Source of the DNA: a virus
Taxonomy: Duplodnaviria > Caudoviricetes
Strand: one strand, 5' to 3'
Virus record (IMG/VR): IMGVR_UViG_3300027819_000009
Span: 10,658-74,657 of that record
Length of the DNA stretch: 64,000 nt
Under the pieces are notes generated by a model. It worked only from the letters and a program-made list of their open reading frames with translations, searched no databases and had not been told where the DNA came from. Below, piece by piece: positions 10,468 through 55,339 of the stretch (its first letter is position 1; every line of letters starts with the position of its first letter). A program made the position numbers and the translations under genes.

Positions 10468-10662
10468 TTAAACTAGTTCAACATTAACCGCATTCGGGCC
10501 TTTTTTGCCTTCTGTAATTTCGAAGGTTACCTCGTCGCCTTCTTTTATTGGGCTGTCAACTAAACCGGTTGCATGAACGAATACCTCATCGTTTGTTTCT
10601 TTGTCAATAATAAATCCGAATCCTTTTGCCGAATTGTAGAATTTTACTTTTCCTTTACTCAT
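10468..10662 (-). CDS. cspA: Cold-shock protein
   Basis: KGKVKFYNSAKGFGFI...VFVHATG...GKKGPNAVNV (RNP1/RNP2). Confidence 0.95.
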   Translation of the reverse strand: MSKGKVKFYNSAKGFGFIIDKETNDEVFVHATGLVDSPIKEGDEVTFEITEGKKGPNAVNVELV

Positions 10663-11657: not shown

Positions 11658-11667
11658 AAGTACTTAA

Positions 11668-12387
11668 TTATTTAATCCCAAAGAATCCTTTTTCCGGTAA
11701 GCGAATAGCCGGAGATGATTCTATATTAAAAGCGATGCAATTGCCTTTAGGCTTCTCAACTGTAAACGGAAAGCCATAGGAACGTAACCTGCCGGTTATT
11801 TCTGCTTCTGTTTTAGTTCCTCCATTTATTGCAAAGCCACAGATATCGTCGTACATTGGACGGTGCTTTTTAAAGATGCTGTGTAAACTATACCCGATTA
11901 CAATTTCCGGATCCGCTAGGGCTTTAGGAAGCTCCTTTTTTACTTCTTCTTTCATATCTATATTATTAGTGTTTATTTTTTCGTTAAATTCTTCTTGGGT
12001 TACGTGTATTGGTTGAACGACGTAAAATATCTTCTCTTTTGAATGCTCTGGCTTTTGATTAGCCCATTCTATATCTTCTTTTGAGGCAGGGTAACCAATG
12101 CCAAGAGTAATTTCTTGAGCCTTTAATTCCTCCGTTAACTCCGCCACTTGTTTATCCTGAAGGCTAGGCGGCTCAAATGGGTAATACTCCTCTTCGTATT
12201 CAACCTCATCGACAATTGTGTAAAAATGAATTAAAAGAATTAAAATAATGCAAATAAGGAAAATTGCCCACTGAACCCATGTTGATGTTTCCTTTTCAAT
12301 TGCTGCATCTACCCATCCGAATACCAGTCCTGCAATTATAATTACTAGCGTAATTGGCCATTTATTCATTAAGGAGAATTTTGTCAT
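11668..12387 (-). CDS. Membrane protein, two N-terminal TM segments
   Basis: WPITLVIIIAGLVFGWV and WAIFLICIILILLIHFY. Confidence 0.6.
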   Translation of the reverse strand: MTKFSLMNKWPITLVIIIAGLVFGWVDAAIEKETSTWVQWAIFLICIILILLIHFYTIVDEVEYEEEYYPFEPPSLQDKQVAELTEELKAQEITLGIGYPASKEDIEWANQKPEHSKEKIFYVVQPIHVTQEEFNEKINTNNIDMKEEVKKELPKALADPEIVIGYSLHSIFKKHRPMYDDICGFAINGGTKTEAEITGRLRSYGFPFTVEKPKGNCIAFNIESSPAIRLPEKGFFGIK

Positions 12388-12518
12388 GATTTATCTTTAT
12401 CTTTTTTTACTTCAATTATTACTTATATTTGTACTGTCCTAAAAAAACTGGTCGGTTAGGTGTCCGATTATAGGCTCGAATAAGATTCACTATACCATCC
12501 TAATCGACCTCTTTTTTG

Positions 12519-12591
12519 AGCGGAAGACAGGGTTCGAACCTGCGACATTTAGAGTGGAAATCTAATACTCTACCAACTGAGCTACTTCCGC
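12519..12591 (-). tRNA. tRNA-Gly(TCC)
   Basis: GCGGAAG/CTTCCGC acceptor, TAGCTCAGTTGGTAGAG D arm, TTAGA-TTTCCAC-TCTAA anticodon arm, GGTTCGAACC T loop, U73; CCA not encoded; TATATTTG promoter at 12617-12624 (-). Confidence 0.93.
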
Positions 12592-35026: not shown

Positions 35027-35716
35027 ATGAAAAAAAGAAACACGCCAGTAAACCCTCATAATGAGTGGTTCTCGGCAAATGGAGATCAAGATTGGAACAG
35101 TGCAGATGAGTGGAGAGGTGCTGATTCTAGTTGGGACGCAAATGGCGGAGATCGCCAAGCAGTGCAAACACACTCAAGCGCACCTTACATTTTACAAATT
35201 GTTAACGCATGTACAAGTGCAATAGCAGATGTAGATATTGGAGATGCAGCAAGAAACCGCACAAGCGCAACGTTCAACCTAAACTCGAACATCACAGTTA
35301 CATCAACTGTGCAGGGTATTAACTACCTTGAGTATTTGGCTATGTCAGAATCTCAACCGTTTTTAGTAGGTGCAACGATGATTATTTCAACAAGCGCCGG
35401 GCAACTGGATCAGACTGTTAAAATAACTCACCGTAATCCTTCTGGGGACGACTGGGGCCACGTAATTACGCCCACCCTCACTTTGAACCAAAACCAAACG
35501 GATCGTGTAATTGATGACTATGAGTATCTTATGACATCAATGACTCGTTTGAGATGGAACCAAATCAATGCATCTGCGACAGTAACTTGTCGTCAGTACT
35601 TGAAAGGCAAATTTGCAGCAAATCAAATTTTAGTTGGACGTCCTGCTTTGCAGGGTTACGGACAGCCGAATGTTGTGGCAAATGCTAAAGGTATCCAAAC
35701 GTTGATTCGCGGTTAA
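35027..35716 (+). CDS. Candidate major capsid protein (predicted beta-rich, single jelly-roll-like) with W-x-x-A-[ND] repeat leader
   Basis: First large gene of the structural operon, followed by its own terminator; alternating beta-strand pattern; codons skewed to AAC/ATC/CGT relative to its paralogue; fold is inferred. Confidence 0.6.
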   Translation: MKKRNTPVNPHNEWFSANGDQDWNSADEWRGADSSWDANGGDRQAVQTHSSAPYILQIVNACTSAIADVDIGDAARNRTSATFNLNSNITVTSTVQGINYLEYLAMSESQPFLVGATMIISTSAGQLDQTVKITHRNPSGDDWGHVITPTLTLNQNQTDRVIDDYEYLMTSMTRLRWNQINASATVTCRQYLKGKFAANQILVGRPALQGYGQPNVVANAKGIQTLIRG

Positions 35717-35741
35717 TTTAGTAGCGATTATTTAATTTAAA

Positions 35742-35775
35742 AGGGCAGGCATCTGTATGTTCTGCTCTTTTTTTT
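35742..35775 (+). terminator. Intrinsic terminator after the candidate major capsid gene
   Basis: AGGGCAGGCAT/ATGTTCTGCTCT stem followed by a long T tract. Confidence 0.75.
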
Positions 35776-35805
35776 AAACTAAACGATTTAATTCCATTTC
35801 GCCAG

Positions 35806-36420
35806 ATGAACAACACAGAATTTTTTAACAACGAGTCGTCCCAAAATAGGGATATTTGGCGTTATGCGAATGGTAGTAATATTTCAAAGGAAGATTTAAT
35901 TAAAGGGCCGGCGCCTTTTATTTTTCAGATTGTAAACGATCAGTCTGCTCCGGAGCCAGCGATAGCAGATGTGGATATTGGGGATGCTGCGAGAAACAGA
36001 ACAAGTGCAACGTTCAATTTAAATTCACACATTACAGTTACATCAGCGGTTCAGGGCATTAATTACAGAGAGTTTTTAGCCATATCAGAGAATAGTCCAT
36101 TCTTGGTAGGTGCAATTATGATTATTTCAACAAGTGCAGGTCAGCTTGACCAAACTGTTAAAATAACTCATAGAAACGCAAGCGGAGATGAGGTTGGACA
36201 CGTTATCTCGCCAACGATTACATTAAATCAAAGACAGACGGATAGAGTGGCGGATGATTATGAGTTTATGTTTGATTCTCTTACTAGAATTAGATTTAAC
36301 CAGATTAATGCCGGTGCAACTGTTACGATAAGGATTTATCCTAAAGAGATTTATTCTTCTGCGGATTTATTAGCGAGAAGAGGTGAAATTGAAAGATTTG
36401 GCAAACCAAGACTTTATTAA
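35806..36420 (+). CDS. Paralogue of the candidate capsid protein (second/minor capsid protein)
   Basis: About 100 of 123 core residues identical to 35027..35716 by hand count. Confidence 0.6.
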   Translation: MNNTEFFNNESSQNRDIWRYANGSNISKEDLIKGPAPFIFQIVNDQSAPEPAIADVDIGDAARNRTSATFNLNSHITVTSAVQGINYREFLAISENSPFLVGAIMIISTSAGQLDQTVKITHRNASGDEVGHVISPTITLNQRQTDRVADDYEFMFDSLTRIRFNQINAGATVTIRIYPKEIYSSADLLARRGEIERFGKPRLY

Positions 36421-36564
36421 ATGACAGATAAAGAAATTGAAATATCGGAAAAACAACATGCTGAAGTAATTCGGCAGATGAAAATAAGCAATATCACAAG
36501 TGGTATTATTGCCACAGCTTCTTTATTTACATTGATTACAATTTTTGTAAAACTTACAAAATGA
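36421..36564 (+). CDS. 47-aa protein with C-terminal TM
   Basis: Manual translation ...SGIIATASLFTLITIFVKLTK. Confidence 0.5.
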   Translation: MTDKEIEISEKQHAEVIRQMKISNITSGIIATASLFTLITIFVKLTK

Positions 36565-37034
36565 TTTATTTAAAACATAATCTACAGCAGAATATAGCGA
36601 GTGCGAATAGCACGAAGGATCCTGCTATGCGTGAGGATATTGTTTTATCTGAGATAGGCAAGCGGATTGCTGTTCGGCCGGAGGTTGTTATTGGGTTTTT
36701 AAAAAAATCAGATATTAATGTTTCTGATACGGCATCTACTGGCAAGATGGTTAGTCTTGTTTCAAAGAACATTGGTAAAAACAAAAACCTAATTGTTTTA
36801 TTTGCTAAAGATATTGGGGCGGGAGAAGGCTCGGAGTTAATGGCGAAGTCTATTTATGAGGTTTTTAAAAAGCCAGGAGCGGAGAGTGAATTAATGAAAT
36901 ACACTAAGGCGATTAAGGGAATAGCTCTTAGCGCTGATGGCGGGGACGATATTAAATGGGGGGCGAGGGTTGCTGTTGGGATTGTTGTTGTTTTAGGGAT
37001 AGGATTTGCAGTTTATAAATATAAGAATGGGTAA
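36561..37034 (+). CDS. Putative virion membrane protein, C-terminal TM
   Basis: LSADGG motif then VAVGIVVVLGIGFAVYKYK. Confidence 0.65.
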   Translation: MIYLKHNLQQNIASANSTKDPAMREDIVLSEIGKRIAVRPEVVIGFLKKSDINVSDTASTGKMVSLVSKNIGKNKNLIVLFAKDIGAGEGSELMAKSIYEVFKKPGAESELMKYTKAIKGIALSADGGDDIKWGARVAVGIVVVLGIGFAVYKYKNG

Positions 37035-37278
37035 GAGTTTGGATGATAAAAAATTAGAGGAGGCTGTGCAGGCGATGTATAGCGGGAGCCTTGGGGCGAA
37101 GATTAAGAAAAACTCGTCGTATGTGATTACGGGGATGTTTATAGGGGGGGTTGCTGGGCTAATGATTGCAAGTTTTATGGGTAAGAGTAAATTGTGGGGT
37201 GCGGTGATTGGGGCGGGAGTTTCGGGAATTGGAGGATATATAGTTTCGAATAATACTAAAAATAAAGAAGATGAGTAA
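37027..37278 (+). CDS. Two-TM glycine-zipper membrane protein
   Basis: GMFIGGVAGLMIA and GAVIGAGVSGIGG. Confidence 0.65.
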   Translation: MGKSLDDKKLEEAVQAMYSGSLGAKIKKNSSYVITGMFIGGVAGLMIASFMGKSKLWGAVIGAGVSGIGGYIVSNNTKNKEDE

Positions 37279-37621
37279 CACAGCAGAAGAAGTAATGGAA
37301 AAGGCTGGAACTAATCAGCACACCGGATCGTATGGTAATACGAAAGGCAAATCTGCTAATTCTCTTTATAAGAGTTATAAAACGTTCGTTACAGATAGGG
37401 GACAGAAACCGCTAGATTTTACTCCTTGGTTAAAATGGGCAAAGGCTAAAGGTATTGTTCCGGCTAATGTAAGTGAGAAAGAAGAGTTTAAGGCTGATGC
37501 GGAAAACAATAATACTAATGTTACTACAGATTCTATTCCTACTTGGAAAATTGCGGTTGGAGTTGTGTTGGTGGTTGGCATAGGAGTGGCTATTTATATG
37601 AATTATAAAAAACCTTCATAA
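37271..37621 (+). CDS. Putative virion membrane protein, C-terminal TM
   Basis: FKADAE motif then IAVGVVLVVGIGVAIY. Confidence 0.65.
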   Translation: MSNTAEEVMEKAGTNQHTGSYGNTKGKSANSLYKSYKTFVTDRGQKPLDFTPWLKWAKAKGIVPANVSEKEEFKADAENNNTNVTTDSIPTWKIAVGVVLVVGIGVAIYMNYKKPS

Positions 37622-37625
37622 AAAA

Positions 37626-38411
37626 ATGAAATTCGGAGTTGCGAGAAAATACGGAGACCAGCAGATTATAATTCCTGTTCGCACAAGGAGCAAGGAGAGG
37701 ATTGTTGTTAGGATATCGCATCCAACTAAACCTAATACGGTTTATTTCGATATTGCTCCAATTATAAACGGGGAAGATGTTATTGTGGCGAAGATACCAA
37801 AGATGCCGGAAACGGTAATAATGGAGGTTTATAACGAGGCTAATGGGCATACAGATAAGGATGGCTCGTTCCAAATTAAAGAACCGAGGATAATGCCTAT
37901 TATTCAGGGCTTTGCAGTTAAGCGATTGATGGATCCGAATGTTAATCGGTTTGCTATGTTCTTGGATGATTTTGCGGAGAATGCGGCGATTATTTCGGCA
38001 CAGAATAGTATTTATAGGAGTCCGGACGGAAAATTTGAGATTCATTATAAGGATGTTATTCGGGATGATAAAGGAAATGAATTAAGGACGCCATTGCGTG
38101 TGAATAGTAAAAGCAAGATAATGGAGATTGCAAAAAAATACTACATTACCTATACTGTTCCTGGGCGTAAGATGTGGGCTTGGCATGAGTTTGCTCATGT
38201 TTGGATAAACAATAATCCGGCAGATGAACTTGAGGCTGATAAGCATGCTATAAAAATTTACTTGGGTTATGGAAATCCAATCGCAGAGGCTTATAATGTG
38301 GTGTTGAAGGTTTTTAAGAATACGCCGTCGGATTTAAATAAGCAGAGATACTTGGCACTAAACGATTATATAAAGAATTTTAACAAAGAAATGACTAAAA
38401 ACTTATCATAA
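37626..38411 (+). CDS. Zinc metallopeptidase (HExxH...ExxAD), candidate maturation protease
   Basis: WHEFAHVWINNNPADELEADKHA; the only soluble enzyme-like gene among the membrane genes. Confidence 0.75.
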   Translation: MKFGVARKYGDQQIIIPVRTRSKERIVVRISHPTKPNTVYFDIAPIINGEDVIVAKIPKMPETVIMEVYNEANGHTDKDGSFQIKEPRIMPIIQGFAVKRLMDPNVNRFAMFLDDFAENAAIISAQNSIYRSPDGKFEIHYKDVIRDDKGNELRTPLRVNSKSKIMEIAKKYYITYTVPGRKMWAWHEFAHVWINNNPADELEADKHAIKIYLGYGNPIAEAYNVVLKVFKNTPSDLNKQRYLALNDYIKNFNKEMTKNLS

Positions 38412-38421
38412 ACTAAAAAAC

Positions 38422-38751
38422 ATGAATAAAGTAGCAATTGGAGCATCATTATTACTAGCATTTGGTATAGGGTATGCCATAGCGAGTAGAAACAAAATCC
38501 CAGAAGGGATAGTTGTTGATTACATTAATAAGAAAAACAGAACGTTTGATGTGTTCGTTAACTATGGCGGACAGGTTTCTTATGCTGATGAGGCGAAATG
38601 GGATCAGATTCACATCCTAACGCCGATTAATGATAACGGAAAGTATTCTTTTGGTATTGATTATGAAGGAAACAAAACGTATATAACAATTAAAGAAAGA
38701 TTAACTGGAAAAGTTATTCAAGAAAAAGTTATTGATTGGGATAAAGTTTAA
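38422..38751 (+). CDS. N-terminal TM protein
   Basis: VAIGASLLLAFGIGYAIA then a beta-rich domain. Confidence 0.6.
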   Translation: MNKVAIGASLLLAFGIGYAIASRNKIPEGIVVDYINKKNRTFDVFVNYGGQVSYADEAKWDQIHILTPINDNGKYSFGIDYEGNKTYITIKERLTGKVIQEKVIDWDKV

Positions 38752-38762
38752 AAACTAATATT

Positions 38763-39254
38763 ATGGAAAAAGGAGCGAAAATAGCATTAGTGGTTGGTGG
38801 GATTGTTGTTGCCATATGTGCAGCAATAGGAATATACTATGCCACAAGGCCTAAAGATACAACATCTGGAAATACCGGTGGTGGTTCTGGTGATGGAAGC
38901 GGAAGTGGCGGAACTGGACTGAATTTAAACATAGACCAGATAAAAGATGTTCTTGGCCAATTTGCTCAAGCGACAAAAGAGAAGTTTCCCTTCCGGATTG
39001 GTATGTACGGGCCGAATATAAAAGCTATGCAGACGGCGTTAAAGAATAAGTTCGGGCAGGATTTGAAAACTGATGGTATTTTTGGAGTTAAAACATTTAA
39101 TGCTTTGAAAAAGACTGGTTATGCTACTCTTTTGGAGAATACTATAAATGACGAGAAGTTTTTAGATATCATTGATGGTAAAAAGATAACAGGCTTTTCG
39201 GCGAATGGCGCGAAGAATGTATTAATGCCATCTGGTAATTATATGCCGATTTAA
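38763..39254 (+). CDS. Membrane-anchored peptidoglycan-binding protein
   Basis: N-terminal TM, G/S linker, GMYGPNIKAMQTAL...DGIFGVKTFNAL (PG_binding_1 pattern). Confidence 0.8.
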   Translation: MEKGAKIALVVGGIVVAICAAIGIYYATRPKDTTSGNTGGGSGDGSGSGGTGLNLNIDQIKDVLGQFAQATKEKFPFRIGMYGPNIKAMQTALKNKFGQDLKTDGIFGVKTFNALKKTGYATLLENTINDEKFLDIIDGKKITGFSANGAKNVLMPSGNYMPI

Positions 39255-39266
39255 AAATAAGAAATT

Positions 39267-39713
39267 ATGACAAAAGGACAAGTTGTATTATTAACAGGAG
39301 GGGCATTGGCTACAATAGCTATTGTTTACTTCGGCTTCATTAAGGAAGATGCCGCAGGGCTTACTTGGCTTGAGAGACTTAAGTTAGGTAATGAGGGTGA
39401 TGCGATTGGTGGCGGAAGTGAAACTCAAAAAGAAAACTTTGAAAAACTGCTTGTTAATACTGGATTAAAACCAACAGGAAAGGATTCTGGCGGTAAAGAT
39501 GTTTTAACGATTAAATTTAACGGGGATAAAAACGTGGCAGATTTTTATACTAATAGTAGGGTTTGGATTTATATGCTTTCTCCTACGGGGGCGAAGTCTA
39601 CTCCTCGCAAGGCAACTTATAGCGATGGGGGTAAAACTTTTTTAATGGATAAGGACGGAAGTCAAATAACAAAAAGCAGTGTTTTTGCAACTTTACTAGA
39701 GGCGATAAAATAA
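39267..39713 (+). CDS. N-terminal TM protein
   Basis: VVLLTGGALATIAIVYFGF. Confidence 0.6.
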   Translation: MTKGQVVLLTGGALATIAIVYFGFIKEDAAGLTWLERLKLGNEGDAIGGGSETQKENFEKLLVNTGLKPTGKDSGGKDVLTIKFNGDKNVADFYTNSRVWIYMLSPTGAKSTPRKATYSDGGKTFLMDKDGSQITKSSVFATLLEAIK

Positions 39714-39714
39714 A

Positions 39715-40215
39715 ATGGCAGATTTAGTTATACCATATAATTCACAACCTGACTATGATGAATGGGGGTCGGACACGTTTTGGCCTTTAGCGACATGGGT
39801 TGCTTGGCATAGGGGACTAGTGAAAAAATACGGCAGGTCTTTAAATCCTGGCGGATATCCTTTTGCGGATGCTATTTGGTTGAATGCGTGGAGTAAGCAG
39901 AGTTACGGAGCGAGTCCTTTACTAGCAATTGGTCAGCCGAGTAGATTTAAAGAGGAGACGGATTATTTAAAGAAGTTTCCTTTGCTGTACGAATACACAG
40001 GATTAAAAAAGCATGAAACAGGAATAAATCCTATTGATGCTACATATAAGCTGATTCAGAAATCAGCGACGGCTTTGCAGGATTTGGGAGAGGGAGTTAC
40101 GGATACGATTTCCGGAGTTGGATCTGGACTTAGCGTTTTAAAGTATGCGATTCCTGTTGTTCTTGTGATTGTAATAGGAACGGGTTTATACATTGGTTAC
40201 AAAAAATTAGCGTAA
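39715..40215 (+). CDS. C-terminal TM protein
   Basis: YAIPVVLVIVIGTGLYIGY. Confidence 0.6.
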   Translation: MADLVIPYNSQPDYDEWGSDTFWPLATWVAWHRGLVKKYGRSLNPGGYPFADAIWLNAWSKQSYGASPLLAIGQPSRFKEETDYLKKFPLLYEYTGLKKHETGINPIDATYKLIQKSATALQDLGEGVTDTISGVGSGLSVLKYAIPVVLVIVIGTGLYIGYKKLA

Positions 40216-40955
40216 TGGCAGACATTAAATATATAATTCCTTTTACTTATAAGTGGGAGGGCGGTTTAAGTAGAGCAACAACAGACTCGGCTTCGAAAAA
40301 CCCTGCCAATATAAGTCCATACACTATTAATGGTCAAACTGGCTGGCATACAAATAAGGGAATTACTTATTCGGTATTTAAAGCCGGAGCATCTAAGTAT
40401 GGGTATCAAGATACTTTAAATAATTGGAAAGATATGCCACACGATATTTGGTTAAAAATAACTAAGAGTGGGTATTGGGATAGATTAAAACTTGACACCT
40501 ATAATAGCCAGCCCGTAGCAAATGTAATGTTTTCATGGGTTTGGGGATCTGGATTAGCATGGCAACCAAGAATGGAGAGATATTTAAAAACGAAAGGTAT
40601 TAATTGGGCTCGTAATAATTTTGGAGACTTGGCTACAAATTTAAATGGCCTAGTTACAAAAGATGGGGAGAAAAAAATATTTGATGAGTTGGTTGAGCAG
40701 AAAAAACAGTTTTTACTATCCTTAAAGGGAACAGACTCTAATCCAGTAACTGATGCAAAGCCTCAAGGGGTTTATACAGATGGGTGGATGAATAGACTTA
40801 GGGATTTACAGACGTATAGTTATACTCTGCTTAGTAAAACGATTACGGATATAGGCGAGGGTTTAAAGAACAACAGTGGAAAGATAATAGTGTTTTTTTT
40901 TGCTTTCTCGATTATAGCGGGGGGAATAGTTTTATATAATAATGCGAAAAGTTAA
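40215..40955 (+). CDS. GH108-family lysozyme with C-terminal TM anchor
   Basis: WEGGLS...TNKGIT catalytic motif, GWMNRL C-terminal motif, IIVFFFAFSIIAGGIVLY anchor. Confidence 0.8.
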   Translation: MADIKYIIPFTYKWEGGLSRATTDSASKNPANISPYTINGQTGWHTNKGITYSVFKAGASKYGYQDTLNNWKDMPHDIWLKITKSGYWDRLKLDTYNSQPVANVMFSWVWGSGLAWQPRMERYLKTKGINWARNNFGDLATNLNGLVTKDGEKKIFDELVEQKKQFLLSLKGTDSNPVTDAKPQGVYTDGWMNRLRDLQTYSYTLLSKTITDIGEGLKNNSGKIIVFFFAFSIIAGGIVLYNNAKS

Positions 40956-40960
40956 ATAAA

Positions 40961-41698
40961 ATGGCAGAATCAAATAATAACAGACAGTACTTTAACAGCG
41001 AGGCTTCGAAAAATCGGGATACTTGGAAGTATGCTGATGCCGGTACTGAGCGAACTCTAAGGATTGGTAATGTAAGGACAAACCTATATGCCACAGGAAA
41101 GTTTGATGATGTGCTACGTGCTGAAAAATGGCATAATGCAGATAGCGAGTCGGAAAACGAAGATTCAGTTGAGTATGAAAACGAACTTCCCGAAGAGGAA
41201 TTTACAGAGGAGGAACTTCCGAAATTTCGTCATTTAGTTCGTGCAAAGAAATTAGAATATAAGGCGCAATACGGAAAGGCTCATTTACAAACAAAAACGG
41301 CTTATAAGAAAGTTTGTTTAGGCGGATGGGTAGATATTAAGGGAGACGGTAAGGGGCCTATATGGAAATCGGATATTAATTGCACGAATATTCCTTATCC
41401 ACAAATCACATGGGTTTGGGGATGGAGAAAAAAGTGGAGAGAGTTTAAACAGGCTGGTGGATTAGCACAGTTAAAAATGCAATCTAAAGGAACGGCACCA
41501 ATACCAGGATACGTGCCTGATGCTAATGCGGGAAATGGAAGTGGAACTGGGACTGGCACAGGAACAGGAAACAAGCCACCAAAACCAGATATTACGCTTG
41601 ATTTACCTGAAAAACAAGAGGCATCAATGGTTACTAATGTAGTTGGTGGCATTTTAGTTGTTGGGCTTTTAATTGGAATATTTAAAACTTTAAAATAG
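40961..41698 (+). CDS. Putative virion membrane protein with capsid-like leader, C-terminal TM
   Basis: YFNSEASKNRDTWKYADAG leader; GT repeat linker; C-terminal TM. Confidence 0.6.
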   Translation: MAESNNNRQYFNSEASKNRDTWKYADAGTERTLRIGNVRTNLYATGKFDDVLRAEKWHNADSESENEDSVEYENELPEEEFTEEELPKFRHLVRAKKLEYKAQYGKAHLQTKTAYKKVCLGGWVDIKGDGKGPIWKSDINCTNIPYPQITWVWGWRKKWREFKQAGGLAQLKMQSKGTAPIPGYVPDANAGNGSGTGTGTGTGNKPPKPDITLDLPEKQEASMVTNVVGGILVVGLLIGIFKTLK

Positions 41699-41704
41699 AA
41701 AAAA

Positions 41705-42271
41705 ATGGTAAACAAATTCAGTATATTAAAATTTGATGATGCCGTAGTGGCATCGTATCATTCGGCAGATGGGCCAGTCCCAGAGGAATTTAATTTATCA
41801 AAATACAATGGCGTGTTAGGTCAAGGATACACAGACTCTAATCTTGTGTTTTTAATTGATAATACTTACTTGCCAGAAGTAAACGGGTTAATACAACAGT
41901 ATAAAGAGAAGAAGATGGTATTGGGCTCTAGTCCACAAAATAGCTTTTTAAAACAACAATATGCTGATTATATAGCAACTATGTCGCAGGTTAAGAGTGA
42001 GTTGACTATTATAAGAAATGCTGCAAAAGGTAGGATTCAATATGCTGTTGATCACCCACAGTCTGTTATTGGAGAGGGGACAGATCTTGGGCAGGTAAAT
42101 CTTAATTTTGGTAGCCCCAAAACAGATGGTGGTAAGGGAAGGAATGTTGGCGAGACGGTTAATGTTGATTTAAATTTACCAAAAACACAAAAAGCATCGC
42201 TTACAGGGAATATAATCGGAACAGTCCTTATTTTAGGATTAGTTTTCGGAGCAATAAAATTTATGAAATAA
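41705..42271 (+). CDS. Putative virion membrane protein, C-terminal TM
   Basis: YHSADGP; LNLPKTQKASLTGNIIG resembles LDLPEKQEASMVTNVVG of the upstream gene. Confidence 0.6.
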   Translation: MVNKFSILKFDDAVVASYHSADGPVPEEFNLSKYNGVLGQGYTDSNLVFLIDNTYLPEVNGLIQQYKEKKMVLGSSPQNSFLKQQYADYIATMSQVKSELTIIRNAAKGRIQYAVDHPQSVIGEGTDLGQVNLNFGSPKTDGGKGRNVGETVNVDLNLPKTQKASLTGNIIGTVLILGLVFGAIKFMK

Positions 42272-42278
42272 AAACATT

Positions 42279-42683
42279 ATGCCAGGAACATTAGAAAATC
42301 CATCAGGAAACACAGGAAGGGGATCTGCTCCAACATCTGAACAGTATGCTCAGTGGGCGCAACAGTCTGCTGCTCTTGCGGCTCAAATCGCAGAGGCTAA
42401 AAATAAGAGAGATGCTTTAATGGCTCAGACGGGATGTAAAAAGCCGTTAATAATGGCTGGTAAAAAGAAAAAAGCGTATTTGGCATGTTTGGAGAATTAC
42501 AAAGCAAAAGTTGAGGCAGCAAAACAAGCGGATAGAGATTTGGTTCGTATGCAACTGGAAATGAGAAGGCTTGATGCTCTGCAAAATAAAGGCTTAAGTA
42601 CCGGCGCATGGATAGCGATATCGGTTGGTGCAGCATTGTTAATTACCGGAGTTGTGGTATTGGTAGTAAAATTAAAAAAATAA
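42279..42683 (+). CDS. Coiled-coil protein, C-terminal TM
   Basis: AWIAISVGAALLITGVVVLVV. Confidence 0.6.
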   Translation: MPGTLENPSGNTGRGSAPTSEQYAQWAQQSAALAAQIAEAKNKRDALMAQTGCKKPLIMAGKKKKAYLACLENYKAKVEAAKQADRDLVRMQLEMRRLDALQNKGLSTGAWIAISVGAALLITGVVVLVVKLKK

Positions 42684-42687
42684 AATT

Positions 42688-43869
42688 ATGACAACAGAAG
42701 AACGCAGAATTAAAATACTTGAAAAGCGACTAAGGCTTTTAGGTGAGTATCTTGAGAGATTCTCTGATGGCGATGGGCCATCATTTGCCGAGTTTGCAAA
42801 ATCGAAAGATATTACTTATGAGATGTTTGTTAAAGACTTGCCTCCTGGATTTGAGAATGTTCCGGCGAGTGGATACGATAATGTTTTAGAATATGCCCTA
42901 CAGCTAAATGAGCTTCTTAACGGACAGCGTAACCTTTCCGAAATGGAGGAGATAGCGGCTGATGGAAACAACCTTGAAAGAGGAGTAACTGACTATTATG
43001 GGCAGTATATCAGAGAGGATTGCGGATGTGGTGGTGGTAGTGAAGATGATAATAGTGCTAGTGCTGACGGGGATGAATTTTCGGCAGCAGGATGTGGTTT
43101 GCCTCCAGTTCCGCCTCCGTTTCCAAATCCTAAAAAGACAAATAATGCCATTACTAGAGCGGCGAGAAAATCATGGGATAAGTATAAAGAAAAACATGCT
43201 AAATACAGAAGGTGTGTGAACGCTCAAAAAGAAAAGAGAAAAGGATATTCTCTTAACGATAAGGCATCTCACGCTCTGCATCTTTCAAATCCATCAGAGG
43301 CTATCGGACGGGTGGCGTTTTTAAAACTAATAGCATTAAATATTTTTGGATTAGCTCAGACTTATGAAAGAATGAGAAGTCATCCGAATCAAACCCATTG
43401 GGACAGAATGAAAAAATTATGGTACAGGCTCGGTGGATCGGAGGTAAAATTAGATAAAAACATAAGCATTGGAAGAGGAAAAAAGCCTATATTTAGACCG
43501 AAAGGATGGAAACCAAAACCATTAAATGCGGATGGGGGGATTTACTCGGCGGATGGTGGTGTTTGGCATAATGCTTACGATGGGATTGCTATCGGTGGAA
43601 TGATTACTGCGGCCACTGGATTGATTGGATCTGTTGCTCCGATTATAAAATCCTTCAAAAAGGATAACGCAGAGCCCGATGCCGACACTTATGACCCTTT
43701 AAATCCAGACATGAGGCTTCCTGAAGACACCGAACTCCCAGATGATACCGGAGTTGATGGAGATGGGCTAACCACTAATCAATGGATTGGAATATCGGCA
43801 GGGGTAGCTGTGGTTCTTGGGGTTATTATATTTGCAGGATATAAAATGAGTAAAGAAATAATAAATTAA
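42688..43869 (+). CDS. Large putative virion membrane protein with multiple ADG motifs
   Basis: AADGN, SADGD, NADGG, SADGG, NAYDG; C-terminal TM. Confidence 0.65.
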   Translation: MTTEERRIKILEKRLRLLGEYLERFSDGDGPSFAEFAKSKDITYEMFVKDLPPGFENVPASGYDNVLEYALQLNELLNGQRNLSEMEEIAADGNNLERGVTDYYGQYIREDCGCGGGSEDDNSASADGDEFSAAGCGLPPVPPPFPNPKKTNNAITRAARKSWDKYKEKHAKYRRCVNAQKEKRKGYSLNDKASHALHLSNPSEAIGRVAFLKLIALNIFGLAQTYERMRSHPNQTHWDRMKKLWYRLGGSEVKLDKNISIGRGKKPIFRPKGWKPKPLNADGGIYSADGGVWHNAYDGIAIGGMITAATGLIGSVAPIIKSFKKDNAEPDADTYDPLNPDMRLPEDTELPDDTGVDGDGLTTNQWIGISAGVAVVLGVIIFAGYKMSKEIIN

Positions 43870-44234
43870 ACATCAATAAATAAAGGTAATTATATATTTA
43901 TTGATACAAAAAAATGAGAAAGCTAATTAGAAATATAAAATATGGGTTAGATTTCCGTAAAACAGCTAATAACTTGCGGAAAATAATCGAAGCCACTTTT
44001 ATTACAGAATTTAAAATTACTAATCCTAAAATAAAGGTTAATTTTCGGTTTGGGTACGCACAATATTTTTATAGACCATCTGTGTGGTTTGGAACAAGGC
44101 AAATTGGTATTATAAGGGAAGATTACCAAGATTCTGGGTGGGTTTCTTCATTTTATACAATAAAACAGTATTTAGAACTGAAGAAAAAATTAGTATCAAC
44201 AAATATATAGTTACCTAAATAAAAAACAAATAAT

Positions 44235-44585
44235 ATGGAAAAAGGAATGAAAATAGGGTTAGGGATTGGTGGAGCCGCCCTTGCTATCGCTGTAATTTAC
44301 TTTGGTTTTACAGAAAAGGGTAAACAACAATGGTCTGTAATGTTTGACCCAACAAAAGGAGGTACAAATGTTCCGCCAAGAACAGGAACAGCCGAAGATG
44401 GGGGCAAGAGCAGAGATGTTGGTGCGGATGGGTTAAATACACGCATAAGAAAAGGATCAGGTTCTGTCGGTTCTGGAAAGTGGATTATTAAAGGTGATAT
44501 GATAGGAAAATCATGTCCGTCTGGTCAATATCCAATATATCTAGAGGGAGAGAAAAAATGGGTTTGTGCCATATCTGATAGATAA
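44235..44585 (+). CDS. N-terminal TM protein with C-terminal cysteine pair
   Basis: IGLGIGGAALAIAVIYFGF; CPSGQY...WVC. Confidence 0.55.
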   Translation: MEKGMKIGLGIGGAALAIAVIYFGFTEKGKQQWSVMFDPTKGGTNVPPRTGTAEDGGKSRDVGADGLNTRIRKGSGSVGSGKWIIKGDMIGKSCPSGQYPIYLEGEKKWVCAISDR

Positions 44586-44649
44586 TTTATAATCTTTTAT
44601 AATAAAGTTGTATTTTTGAGGCTTTAAACCTATTAATACAATCTCTATC

Positions 44650-45381
44650 ATGGCGGAAGTAAAAAACAATGTCTTTGCTGATAAACTAGCGGGGCTTAAA
44701 TTAGATTATGAAGATTATGGGCGTTTACCGATGCGAATGGATGTCCAAGCTCTTGTTGCACCAGATGGTAAAAACACAGCAGATGTTGTTTCGCAATTTG
44801 ATAAACTTCAGTACATAAGAGAGCATTTAAAAAAGATTGATGATTACATTAAGGCAAAAACGAATGTTCCTATTAATGAGTGGAGTGCAAAGAATAACAA
44901 AAATCTAAGCACTAAAGTTCTTTCAAAGCTAAAAGGTCATACTAACGAAACTGGAGGTATTTCAAAATACTTTCATGATTTACAAACTATTTATGACTCC
45001 GAAGAGGCTCTTTATGATAAAATGGAGGCCGACTGCAAATCGGACGAGGCATCAAATAAGATGTTTTACGGAATGCGGGCGGATAGGGATGAGAAGAGAA
45101 AAACAAGATCCGCAGAGAGAAAACTTTTAGTAAAGGATTTAAAGAAAGACGGGAAGGGATTCTTGTTTGTTGAAGTTGAGGAAGCGCCGGTTGCGAAAGA
45201 GGAAGTGAAAAAAGAAGAGAAGGAAAATGAACATGCTGCCGATGGGGATTCGAAGGAGAAAATTGAAAAGGAAGTTGATAAGATACAAAAGACCACAAAG
45301 AACGTGGGGATTTACATTGCCGGCTTTACAATACTGCTTACTGCGGTTATAGTTGTAGCCTCGGCAACAAAAGAAAAATAA
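44650..45381 (+). CDS. Charged protein with C-terminal TM
   Basis: HAADGD motif; IYIAGFTILLTAVIVVA; TATTTTTG promoter-like element at 44611-44618. Confidence 0.6.
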   Translation: MAEVKNNVFADKLAGLKLDYEDYGRLPMRMDVQALVAPDGKNTADVVSQFDKLQYIREHLKKIDDYIKAKTNVPINEWSAKNNKNLSTKVLSKLKGHTNETGGISKYFHDLQTIYDSEEALYDKMEADCKSDEASNKMFYGMRADRDEKRKTRSAERKLLVKDLKKDGKGFLFVEVEEAPVAKEEVKKEEKENEHAADGDSKEKIEKEVDKIQKTTKNVGIYIAGFTILLTAVIVVASATKEK

Positions 45382-46710: not shown

Positions 46711-47997
46711 ATGGGATCATTCGCAACTAGCAACCCCACAGGGGGATCAGATATAACAGGAAGCGGAACGGCCAATCAAGTTGCTGTTTTTGCATCGGCA
46801 TCATCTATAGGAAATCCTACTATTTCATTTACGTCTAGTGCAACTGGCTTTACTATAGGCTCGCTTACGGCAGAGCCGGCTGGAATACTTACACTTACAT
46901 CTATTACACAGGGGTTTATTCCTCCAAGACTTACGTCAGCACAAAGAAATGCAATGCCGGCGGTTCTAGTTGGGATGTCTATATTTAACACAACAAGAGA
47001 TACAATTGATATTTATACAGAAGGTGGCGGGGTTCCAGCTTGGGCATCACTGATTACATCTACGATGTATCCAACGGCGTTTACTGTTGGTGCGCTTTTA
47101 ATGGCCAATACAACAACCACTATCACCACATTATCTGCTGGGGCGGGAGTCGGTTCGTATTTAAGGTCGGCTGGAGCGGCAACAGAGTTGGTGTGGAGCG
47201 TTTTAACACTTCCTAACGCCGCTACCGTAGGAGATATTTTTTACTCAGATACGACTAATGTAATGGGTAGGCTTGCCTCTGGGGCAACGGCTGGAATGTT
47301 TTTAAGAAACGTAGGGGCATCAACGGCTCCGGTATGGAGTACGCTTATACTTCCGAATGCTGCAACAGCTAATCAAATAGTTTATGCTTCAGCCACCAAC
47401 ACATACGGAGGCACAACAACGTTTTTATTTAACGGCACATCGTTTTTAGTAGGTACAGCGACTCAAATAGGCGCAGGAAATATTTGTGACTTTTTTAGAA
47501 ATCAGAATGGCGCAACGTCTGTGTGGACTACTAATAATACATCGGGAACTGCCGCTTTTGCTATGAATGCAGTAACGGCGGATAATGGGACAACCAATAC
47601 AAGTATGCGCTCATTAAGCGCAGGTTATACTACGTCAGGAATGCTTGTGGCTAGTACTGGTGTTGTATTAACAACCTGTACTGCCGGAATGAACCTTGGT
47701 ACTTTTTCTAACACACAATTGTCTTTTTGGACAAATAATACACAACAATGGAGCATAACATCCGGCGGCATATTAACGGCTGTGGATGCTAAAGATATAG
47801 CGTTTGGAACCACAACAGGAACAAAAATAGGCACAGCGACATCGCAAAAATTAGCTTTTTATAACGCCACGCCTATTGTTCAGGGGGCAAGCATAGCGGA
47901 TGCTTCTGGTGGGGCAATTATAGATGCCGAGGCAAGGACGGCTATAAACGCTCTTATATCAAGAATCGAGGCAACTGGACTTATAGCAACGGTTTAA
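46711..47997 (+). CDS. Fibre/spike-like protein with internal repeats
   Basis: T/G/A-rich; GFIPPRLTSAQR; two repeats LR..GA....VWS.L.LPNAAT; KLAFYNATPIVQ. Confidence 0.65.
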   Translation: MGSFATSNPTGGSDITGSGTANQVAVFASASSIGNPTISFTSSATGFTIGSLTAEPAGILTLTSITQGFIPPRLTSAQRNAMPAVLVGMSIFNTTRDTIDIYTEGGGVPAWASLITSTMYPTAFTVGALLMANTTTTITTLSAGAGVGSYLRSAGAATELVWSVLTLPNAATVGDIFYSDTTNVMGRLASGATAGMFLRNVGASTAPVWSTLILPNAATANQIVYASATNTYGGTTTFLFNGTSFLVGTATQIGAGNICDFFRNQNGATSVWTTNNTSGTAAFAMNAVTADNGTTNTSMRSLSAGYTTSGMLVASTGVVLTTCTAGMNLGTFSNTQLSFWTNNTQQWSITSGGILTAVDAKDIAFGTTTGTKIGTATSQKLAFYNATPIVQGASIADASGGAIIDAEARTAINALISRIEATGLIATV

Positions 47998-48023
47998 AAA
48001 TAATAAAATGTGCAAAACTAATT

Positions 48024-49232
48024 ATGGCAATAGGATTTATAAGATCTACACCCGTTAATATTCCATTGCCTATTGGTAATCTAATTAATGATTCATTTTC
48101 TGGCGCAGCATTAAGCTCCAACTGGACAGCAACAAATCCAAATACTACAATTACAGTTAGTGGGGGGGATTTGCTTTTAAATAGGTCGGTTGGAGGCGGA
48201 TATCAGCTTAATAGCGATTACTTATTATACACTGGATATGGTGGGACTTGTCTTGAGGATTGGACAATTACAGTTCCTTTTAAAATAACAGAAACAAGCG
48301 CAACGAGTACCGGCTTTGCTATTGGTGTTAAGTCGACTGCAAATTGGTATTCTAACTATTGGTATCTAGTTCAGTTTAACACAAATAGTGGCGCTGGAAA
48401 TAAAAAGCTGTATTTTTATATGGCTGGCGCAACAACCGCCACTACAATATCCTCAACGGCACTAACGGCAGCACTAAATGATGAGTGTACTCTTACTGTT
48501 ACTAGGTCGGCAGATACCACAAATGGACAAAAAATAACAGCTACAGTTACAAATTTAACTAATCCCAACAGCGTAAGCCACTCCTATACATTTACAGAGG
48601 CGTATCAGATTACTGTCGGATCGCCACCCACATGCTACTTCGCTATTTTCCCATTCGTTGGGCAAATAACGCTTCACTCCTTTACAGTTAGCACAGCTTA
48701 TTATAAAAACTGCAATATAATTACAAGGGGAGATAGTATAACTAGGGGTGTTTATGCTTTATCCTACACGAACAGATGGACTACTTTATTCTTTGGAAGC
48801 TCTCTTAAAAAAAACTATTCGTGTGGTGGCCCAGGAGACAGAACAACATCTGTACTGGACAATATACCGGAATTGCTTTTATTTAAGCCTAAGTTTGTTG
48901 TTTTAATGATTGGAGGGAACGACCTAGCTGGCGGCGTGGCAATAGGCACAGTGCAGACCAATTACCAAAGTATAGTAACTCAGCTTATAGCCGGCGGTAT
49001 CACAGTGTGGCATTGTATGACTCCGCCGAGAAATGGTTATGATTATACAACGTGGAACAGCTGGTTAAGCTCAACTTATTTAAATGTAGTCAACACATTT
49101 ACTAATTTAAAAGCTGCTGTTGGAACTGGATTAAATGCCGCATACAATAGCGGAGATGGAACACATGAAAACACAGCTGGCCACGCATTAATAGCATCCG
49201 ACTGCACATCATCTATAGGAAGTTTAGTATAA
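48024..49232 (+). CDS. Beta-domain plus SGNH/GDSL hydrolase (candidate receptor-modifying spike)
   Basis: GDSIT (block I), GPGDRT (II), IGGND (III), DGTHEN (V). Confidence 0.85.
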   Translation: MAIGFIRSTPVNIPLPIGNLINDSFSGAALSSNWTATNPNTTITVSGGDLLLNRSVGGGYQLNSDYLLYTGYGGTCLEDWTITVPFKITETSATSTGFAIGVKSTANWYSNYWYLVQFNTNSGAGNKKLYFYMAGATTATTISSTALTAALNDECTLTVTRSADTTNGQKITATVTNLTNPNSVSHSYTFTEAYQITVGSPPTCYFAIFPFVGQITLHSFTVSTAYYKNCNIITRGDSITRGVYALSYTNRWTTLFFGSSLKKNYSCGGPGDRTTSVLDNIPELLLFKPKFVVLMIGGNDLAGGVAIGTVQTNYQSIVTQLIAGGITVWHCMTPPRNGYDYTTWNSWLSSTYLNVVNTFTNLKAAVGTGLNAAYNSGDGTHENTAGHALIASDCTSSIGSLV

Positions 49233-54727: not shown

Positions 54728-54735
54728 TATATTTG
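54728..54735 (+). promoter_or_regulatory. Bacteroidota-type promoter of the tmRNA (TATATTTG)
   Basis: TAnnTTTG 5 nt upstream of the predicted acceptor-piece 5' end. Confidence 0.65.
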
Positions 54736-54740
54736 CTTCG

Positions 54741-55066
54741 GAAATTCGTATTAAGGATTAGTTCTTTAAAATATTTGTATAATGAGTTTATTTGGACGAG
54801 GGTTCGAATCCCTCCGAGTCCACTCTCTTCGCCGAGAAGAACCGATAGAAAATAAAGGGTGTTATTACGTCCGGCTATCGGTTGGTTTTATTGGGCTCGC
54901 TCGGTTTTGACAGTAAACAAGAAGTCTGCAATGAGAATTTCTAAGTCGTAAAAGACAAAAAAGAAGCAAAAGTGATTGCTTTCGTGCCAAAGGCAGAAGC
55001 ACCACGTGTGGAAATGAAAATTGCCGCATAAGCGCATTACCCCTAGCATTATATGTTGGGGGTTTT
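54741..55066 (+). ncRNA. ssrA: Circularly permuted (two-piece) tmRNA
   Basis: T arm and acceptor 3' strand CGAGTCC-A (54798-54822) precede the 5' strand GGGCTCG and GGTTTTGAC D loop (54893-54911); G3.U70 pair; tag frame ...EMKIAA-TAA ends at 55031. Confidence 0.88.
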
Positions 55067-55073
55067 GTTTTTT
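55039..55073 (+). terminator. Intrinsic terminator closing the tmRNA coding piece
   Basis: ACCCCTAGCAT/ATGTTGGGGGT stem plus T tract. Confidence 0.75.
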
Positions 55074-55339
55074 GTATATAAAATAGTTGTATATTTATCT
55101 CACAATCATTTTATATTCCATAAGCGCTGCAACGCTGGTAAAAGCCCACTTATATGTGGGCTTTTATTATTCCAGCGGTTCAAGTAAGTAAAATTACCCA
55201 ACCCGATAAAATTCTATGGCTGATTATCAAGAAGTTAGCCAACTTTACCAACTATTTACACTATTCTTATAGCGATTTGTATTGCTATTTGTAAAAACGG
55301 ATGTATATTTGTGTAAAGTTTAACGAAAACCAATATAAA

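Follow-up and report, generated by a model that had tools for sequence, protein, structure and literature searches.

A conserved S-A-[D/N]-G motif recurs in the capsid-like and membrane proteins of an undescribed virus that also encodes a predicted zinc metallopeptidase

In a 64,000-nucleotide window (positions 10,658 to 74,657 of the viral record IMGVR_UViG_3300027819_000009; all coordinates below refer to this window), we show that a five-residue peptide motif, Phi-S-A-[D/N]-G with Phi a hydrophobic residue, recurs far above chance in the region 35027-45381 and across related genomes. The proteins carrying it are capsid-like and membrane proteins of an undescribed virus, whose genome is 74.7 kb with direct terminal repeats and which also encodes a predicted zinc metallopeptidase. 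The motif is probably a processing or assembly signal, although no cleavage has been shown.

Enrichment of the motif in the structural module

A first-pass annotation, made from the sequence alone, claimed that an A-[D/N]-G motif recurs in leaders or next to membrane anchors of otherwise unrelated proteins in this region, often with an aromatic residue three positions before the Ala, and inferred that a zinc metalloprotease encoded there (37626) cleaves at or near it during assembly. Overall, its observation is confirmed and could be sharpened. Every peptide it listed is present in the gene to which it was assigned, and so is HEFAH...ELEAD in 37626. However, some of the listed items (FKADAE, WHNAYDG and the ANG inside 37626) are weak or not conserved, and the aromatic residue three positions before Ala is a feature of the leaders, while elsewhere the conserved flank is a hydrophobic residue two positions before Ala.

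Enrichment over the rest of the proteome and in homologous genomes had been set beforehand as a test, and we performed it with a greedy set of open reading frames (148 genes) and shuffles within each protein. A-[D/N]-G is observed 13 times against 2.7 expected inside 35027-45381 (3346 aa), compared with 12 against 7.1 in the other 19,514 aa of the genome. W-x-x-A-[D/N] is observed 6 times against 0.54 expected inside, and once outside. The sharper core S-A-[D/N]-G is observed 6 times against 0.16 expected inside and never outside, and it still occurs 5 times against 0.14 once the two capsid-like proteins are removed. The enrichment is 35-40 fold and specific to the module. In an unbiased count of all 4-mers found in three or more proteins, SADG ranks first, which reduces the concern that the motif was chosen after the fact. 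The codons at the motif vary (GCA/GCT/GCG/GCC and GGA/GGC/GGT/GGG), so selection acts on the peptide and not on a DNA word. In addition, the core recurs in related contigs (18 vs 0.9), and replication in six related contigs gave 40 against 11.6 expected on the structural side and 7 against 4.6 on the glycosyltransferase side.

Placement of the motif in leaders and linkers

The features of the region are collected in Table 1, where L001 to L014 denote related loci. On the whole, 16 of the 19 proteins in the region, plus 45383 just downstream, carry a predicted TM helix.

Table 1. Coordinates of the motif-bearing and context genes, with residue numbers counted within each protein
Gene (strand)	Predicted product	Motif and other landmarks	Relatives
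35027..35716 (+)	Capsid-like jelly-roll protein 1 (229 aa)	Disordered leader (residues 1-42): basic N-terminus, then four W-x-x-A-[D/N]-x units, residues 14-41 (nt 35066-35149)	63 homologues, 59 with 1-5 such units
35806..36420 (+)	Capsid-like jelly-roll protein 2, a paralogue	Type-2 leader (residues 1-23, nt 35806-35874) ending in W-R-Y-A-N-G	Same leader type heads 40961 and, in L001/L004, the orthologue of 36561
36561..37034 (+)	Tail-anchored membrane protein	L-S-A-D-G-G at residues 123-128 (nt 36927-36944), just before the TM helix and basic tail; S-A-N-S at residues 14-17	S-A-N-S aligns with S-A-[D/N]-G in orthologues
37271..37621 (+)	Tail-anchored membrane protein	K-A-D-A, a weak instance	M-S-A-D-G and H-S-A-D-A in the L001 and L008 orthologues, at the end of the conserved domain
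37626..38411 (+)	Predicted zinc metallopeptidase, no TM segment (261 aa)	N-terminal beta sandwich (1-94); M48/M78-like catalytic half (107-256); HExxH at 187-191 (nt 38184-38198); ExxxD at 201-205 (nt 38226-38240)	Family of 461 clusters
38763..39254 (+)	Membrane protein with N-terminal TM helix and peptidoglycan-binding-like domain	F-S-A-N-G at residues 145-149 (nt 39195-39209), after that domain	Position conserved as S-A-D-G, T-A-D-G or A-A-S-G in L003/L006/L007 and S-A-D-G in L014
40215..40955 (+)	GH108 lysozyme with C-terminal TM helix	No motif	GH19 takes this position in L006-L008
40961..41698 (+)	Tail-anchored membrane protein	Type-2 leader ending in W-K-Y-A-D-A (residues 1-27, nt 40961-41041); second unit W-H-N-A-D-S at residues 57-62
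41705..42271 (+)	Tail-anchored membrane protein	Y-H-S-A-D-G at residues 18-23 (nt 41756-41773)	N-V-D-G-P at this site in the L014 orthologue; the site is variable
42688..43869 (+)	Largest membrane protein (393 aa)	x-A-D-G at Ala 91, 126, 281 and 288, all in linkers between conserved blocks	x-A-D-G in 13 of 13 family members at the site after the K-P-I-F-R-P-K-G-W-K-P-K block
44235..44585 (+)	Membrane protein with N-terminal TM helix	G-A-D-G (Ala 64, nt 44421-44432) between the anchor and a Cys-containing C-terminal domain	N-S-A-D-G at the same place in the L014 orthologue
44650..45381 (+)	Tail-anchored membrane protein	A-A-D-G (Ala 197, nt 45235-45246) in the charged linker before the TM helix	L-A-A-D-G at 193 in L014; absent in L008 and L001
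10815..11657 (-)	ATPase, candidate packaging ATPase	Walker A motif near its N-terminus	Core gene of the virus group

All 63 homologues of the 35027 protein are metagenomic. The hexapeptides in their disordered N-terminal leaders (W-x-S-A-D-G, or more loosely the units of Table 1) are mostly in tandem, with 2-5 copies at a 6-residue period in 46 of the 63. The most conserved positions are Trp, the small residues and [D/N]-G. In the AF2 model of 35027 the leader has pLDDT below 50 while the core is a beta sandwich with pLDDT 80-92. Structure comparison with VIA gave Z 6.5 to PR772 P31, 5.7 to the FLiP MCP and 5.2 to phiCjT23, with plant-virus jelly rolls also in the range of 5-6.5, but non-viral sandwiches score alike and the Foldseek E-values are all above 1e-3. 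Capsid paralogues without the leader exist in L013 and L014, so the leader is dispensable for the fold.

A second type of leader, ending in W-x-x-A-D-G, heads three unrelated protein families, and it is found on different proteins in different genomes, as a portable signal would be. The single motifs sit at borders of domains and linkers and are kept at matching positions in orthologues, with conservation stopping right after A-D-G. Motif positions shift within linkers between orthologues, yet at least one copy is usually kept.

The predicted zinc metallopeptidase

The 37626 protein is very probably a zinc metallopeptidase. The pattern HExxH-x9-ExxxD is invariant in its family; among 138 aligned members H187, E188, H191, E201 and D205 do not vary, and R241 and P58 are also invariant. 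The model has pLDDT 94.6 and places HExxH on helix 178-194, with E201 and D205 at the start of helix 201-214, the latter being read from the helix assignment of the model and not from ligand geometry. The catalytic half resembles M48/M78 gluzincins: VIA aligned model residues 107-256 to BepA (6sar_A) with Z 8.3 and rmsd 4.2 over 120 residues, and to 3c37 with Z 6.4, while the structure rows of the Atlas include an M78-bearing cluster with TM 0.76 by target, and M48 clusters. The Z value is moderate for a helical domain. However, only 9 residues separate HExxH from the acidic motif, against about 60 in BepA, where the ligand is Glu-201 against His-136/140 (10.1101/2020.07.07.192476). No Pfam model is passed by 37626, distant members reach only 12-15 bits against cut-offs of 20-31 for Peptidase_M48, M56, M78 and PhageMetallopep, and NCBIfam gives no hit, and therefore we do not assign it to any curated family.

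An orthologue of 37626 is present in every locus that covers this part of the module (L001-L004, L006-L010 and L012-L014), and it is a core gene even in relatives only 26-27% identical. It is also the only protease-like gene found, and no HK97 capsid, terminase, S78 or ClpP was detected in the genome.

Possible roles of the motif and related systems

We consider the region 35027-45381 to be the virion module of an undescribed group of viruses that appear to be tailless, membrane-containing and of the jelly-roll type. Our analysis establishes the motif, its conservation and its placement, together with the peptidase signature and fold, while cleavage itself, the link between enzyme and substrate, the scissile bond and the timing are inferred. 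The interpretation of the first-pass annotation is thus partly supported, since a conserved, module-specific motif and a very probable peptidase both hold, whereas cutting of the one by the other remains a hypothesis. Our preferred mechanism, held tentatively and at less than even confidence, is that the motif, which in leaders takes the form W-x-S-A-[D/E/N]-[G/A], is the recognition and cleavage signal of 37626. In this view the enzyme would remove or shred the leaders of the capsid-like proteins and free domains from their anchors during assembly, and if the cut lies between Ala and Asp/Asn/Glu, it would have an Asp-N-like preference for an acidic or amide P1' residue. In favour of it are the module-specific enrichment and its replication in relatives, the placement in disordered leaders and at the ends of conserved domains, the leader shared by three unrelated families, the existence of leaderless capsid paralogues, the usual retention of at least one copy where positions shift, the invariant signature and M48-like fold of 37626 as a core gene, and the lack of any S78 or ClpP protease found in the genome. 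Several facts speak against it. Up to five tandem copies in one leader is more than removal of a leader needs. Two carriers, 38763 and 44235, have N-terminal anchors, and their motifs may lie on the far side of the membrane from an enzyme with no TM segment and no signal peptide recognizable by eye. In the distant relative L010 the protease keeps all its invariant residues while S-A-D-G is degenerate, with only a faint F-D-G-N recurrence. The gap between HExxH and the presumed third ligand is much shorter than in BepA, and 37626 passes no Pfam threshold. A more specific form of this view, in which an undescribed clade of large viruses of this apparent type matures its virions with an M48-like zinc metallopeptidase cutting at Phi-S-A-|-D/N-G, is possible but somewhat less likely still. 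If true, it would be the first maturation protease and the first consensus cleavage code in a prokaryotic jelly-roll virus, evolved independently of the adenain-type protease of the eukaryotic lineage.

The closest rival, somewhat less likely than cleavage, is that the motif is an uncleaved docking or assembly signal, bound by a common partner that would recruit membrane proteins and capsid subunits to the assembling particle. Candidate partners are the base of the capsid protein, an assembly factor, or the beta-sandwich domain of 37626. The tandem copies in the capsid leader would give avidity and fit multivalent docking at least as well as cleavage; the flexible linkers and plastic positions are typical of binding motifs, and the protease is retained where the motif is degenerate. 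However, no partner is identified, leaderless capsid paralogues exist, and a conserved peptidase with no other obvious substrate sits in the middle of the same operon.

It is unlikely that the motif is a structural element with no dedicated reader, although Asp-Gly and Asn-Gly favour tight turns, and Trp with acidic residues could sit at the membrane interface or bind Ca2+, the leader then tying the shell to the internal membrane. The conserved positions of the leader units, the basic N-terminus before the repeats and the many predicted TM helices agree with this, but it does not explain why Trp-less single copies are kept at linker positions of unrelated proteins or why a whole leader is shared between unrelated families, and the AF2 model gives the leader no structure.

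A modification site, for example O-glycosylation of the Ser by glycosyltransferases of the virus, which all relatives encode next to the capsid gene, is more doubtful. A conserved glycosyltransferase island does lie directly upstream, transcribed divergently, in most of the related loci. However, among 166 leader units the Ser position is S in 105, N in 26 and G in 11, with Thr almost never seen, and the Asp position mixes D, E and N, neither of which suits an O- or N-glycan acceptor; nor does the motif match the Bacteroidota sequon D-[S/T]-[A/I/L/V/M/T]. Still less likely is a host-interaction epitope acting at entry or against a host defence, supported only by a resemblance in composition to colicin TolB-box-like (D-G-S-G-W) or GW-type hooks, such as the GW repeats of Argonaute binders; the spacing differs, the Trp-less copies in membrane proteins are left unexplained, and capsid N-termini of jelly-roll viruses usually face inward. 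A chance or compositional artefact, for which one could cite only the post-hoc definition of the motif and the looseness of several listed instances, is effectively refuted, since shuffles keeping each protein's composition never reached the observed counts, the rest of the genome has no copy of the core, and replication and positional conservation in relatives are strong.

Among described systems, the T4 prohead protease gp21 with its capsid targeting sequences and the phiKZ/201phi2-1 head protease cut at L/I-x-E and S/A/G-x-E, respectively. There, a short consensus motif is likewise shared by many otherwise unrelated virion proteins, at the end of N-terminal leaders and at internal sites, and a portable leader heads different proteins; those enzymes, however, are serine proteases of tailed phages with HK97-type capsids, whereas the candidate here is a zinc metallopeptidase and its cleavage is unproven. 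Adenovirus AVP, poxvirus I7 (A-G-X) and G1 metalloprotease, and ASFV pS273R (G-G-X) mature large dsDNA viruses, several of the jelly-roll lineage, by cuts at one short motif rich in small residues in many virion proteins. These are cysteine proteases except G1, which has an inverted HxxEH motif and no defined site, and all belong to eukaryotic viruses. In the evolutionary model summarised in PMC6260650, the ancestral PRD1-like phage is listed with a capsid protein, polymerase and ATPase, and the maturation protease comes from a eukaryotic transposable element.

The M48/minigluzincin peptidases (BepA, HtpX, Ste24) and M78 ImmA/IrrE share with 37626 an HExxH helix followed by a helix carrying an acidic ligand (E-x-x-x-D, presumed in 37626), but 37626 has the shorter spacing, an extra N-terminal beta sandwich and a viral, structural genomic context. 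C-terminal sorting signals (LPXTG/sortase, PEP-CTERM/exosortase, GlyGly-CTERM) resemble 36561 only, where the pentapeptide ending in Gly is followed directly by a TM helix and a basic tail. In most carriers the motif is at the N-terminus or 20 or more residues from the anchor, some anchors are N-terminal, and we saw no membrane-embedded sorting enzyme.

Prokaryotic viruses with internal membranes and jelly-roll capsid proteins (PRD1/PR772, FLiP, phiCjT23, and sphaerolipoviruses with two capsid proteins) have genomes far smaller than 74.7 kb; here the two capsid-like genes are recent paralogues, the fold matches are only moderate, and no sequence relation to any named virus was found. What is shared with them are jelly-roll-like capsid candidates, a long run of small membrane proteins, membrane-anchored lysozymes and an ATPase with an N-terminal Walker A. 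The ATPase here is 30-48% identical to those in L009, L010 and L013, and in L009 and L010 they lie next to the capsid-like gene.

Gene content of the region and its surroundings

The sequence belongs to a virus record of 74,657 bp, the ends of which overlap by 104 bp, and the record is classed in IMG/VR as having direct terminal repeats. From 35027 to about 51.5 kb nearly all genes are on the + strand, while a minus-strand island rich in glycosyltransferases lies directly upstream, an arrangement that also has its counterparts in related loci (here numbered with the prefix L). In 35027-45381 we count 19 ORFs, hereafter named by their first nucleotide. Among them, 16 carry a predicted TM helix, in most cases at the extreme C-terminus followed by a basic tail and in some at the N-terminus, and 45383 just downstream has one too. 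Pfam and PHROGs recognise only a GH108 lysozyme (40215), a peptidoglycan-binding-like stretch (38763) and, just beyond the region, a LEA_2 domain (45383). The features with coordinates are collected in the table below.

A tailed-phage identity has no support. Six-frame searches of the whole genome find no HK97-type capsid, terminase, S78 protease or ClpP, and PHROGs gives only marginal tail-protein hits on two proteins just outside the region. In addition, an ATPase with Walker A at residue 12 is 30-48% identical to the ATPases found in distant relatives, which in L009 and L010 lie beside the capsid-like gene. It hits no Pfam, PHROG or PDB sequence, and together with its neighbour, a protein with two TM helices, it is a candidate membrane-associated packaging machinery. 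We therefore read the region as the virion module of a membrane-containing, probably tailless virus, although this remains an inference. Concerning the surrounding genes, the membrane-anchored lysozyme is GH108 here and in L001, L003 and L014, but GH19 in L006-L008; the module has been swapped at a fixed position. The small ORF after the 42688 gene has no TM segment and no Pfam hit here, whereas the gene at the same position in two relatives hits the SET methyltransferase domain. Further downstream, the repeat-rich protein and the protein with a C-terminal GDSL/SGNH esterase are probably a spike and a receptor-modifying enzyme, and the gene at the corresponding position in L014 hits PF26696 (PTL_trimer).

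Coordinates of features in the window and in related loci
Sequence	Position	Strand	Feature
Window	10815-11657	-	ATPase
Window	10815-12387	-	ATPase and adjacent 239-aa protein with two TM helices
Window	54731-55122 and 12518-12591		Permuted tmRNA-like gene (tag peptide ending in A-A) and tRNA-Gly(TCC), called by ARAGORN
Window	40215-40955		Membrane-anchored lysozyme, GH108
L006	14711-15496		Lysozyme at the same position, GH19
L007	14923-15690		Lysozyme at the same position, GH19
L008	7667-8398		Lysozyme at the same position, GH19
Window	42688-43869		Membrane protein with Cys/Gly-rich variable linker (residues ~110-135)
Window; L014	43914-44210; 11164-11493		Small ORF after the 42688 gene and gene at the same position
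Window	46711-49232		428-aa repeat-rich protein followed by 402-aa protein with C-terminal GDSL/SGNH esterase
L013	18774-19364		Capsid-like paralogue without any leader
L014	2353-2913		Capsid-like paralogue without any leader
L001	10793-12190		Second capsid-like gene of enlarged size
L012	10770-12434		Second capsid-like gene of enlarged size

Recurrence and conservation of the motif

The first-pass annotation had reported a recurring A-[D/N]-G motif across the structural proteins, and this observation holds. Every peptide it listed is present. Based on a greedy ORF set and within-protein shuffles, A-[DN]-G occurs 13 times in the region against 2.7 expected, while the rest of the proteome has 12 against 7.1 expected. 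W-x-x-A-[DN] occurs 6 times against 0.54, with 1 outside. The sharper core S-A-[DN]-G occurs 6 times against 0.16 and never outside, and it still occurs 5 times against 0.14 when both capsid-like proteins are left out. Moreover, an unbiased ranking of all 4-mers present in at least three proteins puts SADG first. The codons at the motif differ from instance to instance, so that the constraint is on the peptide, and a DNA-level motif such as a Chi-like word or a methylation site is rejected.

We then examined the motif in relatives. The 35027 protein has 63 homologues, 40-100% identical and with the window's two own paralogues among them, all of which are from metagenomes and none of which is named. 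A search of IMG/VR with the capsid alignment found no relatives, and a blastn search of phage records found nothing. The N-terminal leaders of the homologues are built alike: a basic start is followed by 1-5 hexapeptides W-x-[S/N/G]-A-[D/E/N]-[G/A/S], and then by about 12 residues before the conserved core. On the whole, 59 of 63 have at least one unit and 46 have two or more, and the Trp-to-Trp spacing is 6 in 101 of 182 pairs. A PDB sequence search with the repeat leader found nothing. A second leader type reads roughly M-N-N-x-x-F-F-N-x-E-x3-N-R-D-x-W-x-x-A-D-G, and it heads the paralogue 35806, the unrelated membrane protein 40961 and, in L001 and L004, the orthologue of 36561, with similarity stopping right after A-D-G. 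A search restricted to the 40-residue leader of 40961 returned only the protein itself. Leaderless capsid paralogues occur in L013, where the protein starts directly at the first core strand (M-E-P-A-Q-P-F-I-I-Q-V-V), and in L014, where the second capsid gene seems to start at M-S-S-G-Q-P-F-S-I-K.

In six related contigs the motif is enriched on the structural side (40 against 11.6) but not on the glycosyltransferase side (7 against 4.6), and S-A-[DN]-G occurs there 18 times against 0.9. Single copies sit at the ends of conserved domains or in linkers, and are kept at matching positions in orthologues. In the 38763 family, [F/L/V]-[S/T]-A-[D/N]-G follows the peptidoglycan-binding-like domain. 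In the 42688 family there are three linker sites, one of them x-A-D-G in 13 of 13 members, and the Cys/Gly-rich variable linker (C-G-C-G-G-G type), which could bind metal or form disulphides, is flanked by two A-D-G sites in most family members. The copies in 44235 and 44650 are conserved in L014. In other families the motif moves within the linker or appears only in some members, which is usual for short linear motifs. In the distant locus L009 the motif persists (F-H-N-A-D-G, F-R-S-A-D-G). In L010, the most distant relative, it is degenerate, and the top recurrent 4-mer of the structural genes is F-D-G-N, found in three proteins against 0.03 expected, with one copy in the capsid leader. This may be a shifted version of the motif, but the recurrence is faint, and as a sign of co-variation of motif and protease across clades it is only a hint, too thin to use.

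The predicted peptidase and the capsid-like proteins

An exhaustive HMMER search with the 37626 protein finds 461 clusters (at 50% identity) with E <= 1e-3. In 138 aligned members H187, E188, H191, E201, D205 and R241 are invariant, and P58 is invariant in all but one, which gives HExxH-x9-ExxxD. The AF2 model is confident, with pLDDT 94.6. In this model residues 1-94 form a beta sandwich that resembles carbohydrate-binding and GOLD domains (Z 7-8), while residues 107-256 match E. coli BepA (M48) best, with Z 8.3 over 120 residues, and also the M48-like 3c37 with Z 6.4. The ESM Atlas lists viral clusters of the same fold, plus M78- and M48-bearing clusters for the catalytic half. The zinc ligands of BepA are the two His of HExxH and a Glu on a later helix (10.1101/2020.07.07.192476), and here the acidic motif follows much sooner. 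No Pfam or NCBIfam model is passed, the protease profile against PDB sequences gave only noise, and Foldseek against PDB and BFVD with the model was dominated by the N-terminal sandwich. We therefore call the protein an M48/M78-like gluzincin by fold and signature, not a member of a curated family. It has no TM segment, and it is conserved in every related locus that covers this part of the module, down to 26% identity.

The model of the 35027 protein has a disordered leader (residues 1-42, pLDDT about 40) and a beta-sandwich core. The best structural matches are moderate and mixed, including PR772 P31 at Z 6.5, FLiP capsid protein at 5.7, phiCjT23 at 5.2, plant-virus jelly rolls, and also non-viral sandwiches. 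The jelly-roll reading is likely, while a capsid role is inferred from the position of the gene next to the ATPase in relatives, its high conservation, and its place as the first gene of the module. Homology between the beta sandwich of the protease and the capsid jelly roll is rejected (hhalign probability 2%). In some relatives, L001 and L012, the second capsid-like gene is 465-554 aa, twice the usual size, and may be a jelly roll fused to an extra domain.

Possible roles of the motif

The analysis establishes that the motif is a real, conserved peptide signal specific to virion proteins, that it is placed where a reader protein could reach it, and that a conserved, predicted zinc peptidase is encoded among its carriers, whereas cleavage at the motif by that peptidase is inferred. 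The proposal of the first-pass annotation, that a zinc metalloprotease cuts at or near the motif during assembly, is thus supported only in part. Nevertheless we tentatively prefer cleavage. A short motif shared by many virion proteins, at leader ends and linkers, is the classical signature of maturation proteases in T4, phiKZ, adenovirus, poxviruses and ASFV, and a portable leader on unrelated proteins resembles the capsid targeting sequences of T4. In addition, leaderless paralogues show that the leader is not part of the fold, and the enzyme has no other evident substrate. On the other hand, the copies in the capsid leader are tandem, which fits multivalent docking, some carriers may expose the motif on the far side of the membrane, and the protease persists where the motif decays. 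Docking without cleavage, somewhat less likely, remains the closest alternative, followed by the unlikely readings of a structural or interfacial element and, still less probably, of a modification site, and by the very unlikely one of a host-interaction mimic. Asn-driven autocleavage is unlikely, because Asp is far commoner than Asn at that position, and chance is effectively excluded.

In the preferred view the system would work like the consensus-site maturation systems of large dsDNA viruses. The candidate enzyme, however, is a predicted metallopeptidase, and the host virus appears to be a prokaryotic jelly-roll virus, a lineage not known to use a maturation protease (PMC6260650). Actually, prokaryotic jelly-roll viruses with internal membranes are thought to assemble without one, and in the model reviewed there the protease comes from a eukaryotic transposable element, not from the PRD1-like ancestor (PMC6260650). 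A conserved peptide code on capsid leaders and on a dozen membrane proteins, sitting beside a conserved, predicted zinc peptidase, makes a direct test possible in a virus group with no cultured or named member. If the motif is instead a docking signal, it would be a rare handle on how viral membrane proteins are selected for the internal vesicle. Either way, the motif and the two leader types are practical markers for finding and annotating this virus group in metagenomes, where its contigs are currently unnamed, labelled as tailed phages, or binned into bacterial MAGs. For example, L012 (LCET01000007.1) and L013 (NVWA01000041.1) are deposited inside MAGs labelled Candidatus Woesebacteria and Planctomycetota, which is probably a binning artefact, so these labels should not be read as hosts. 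One relative sits on a 75.8-kb contig of GCA_034680565.1.
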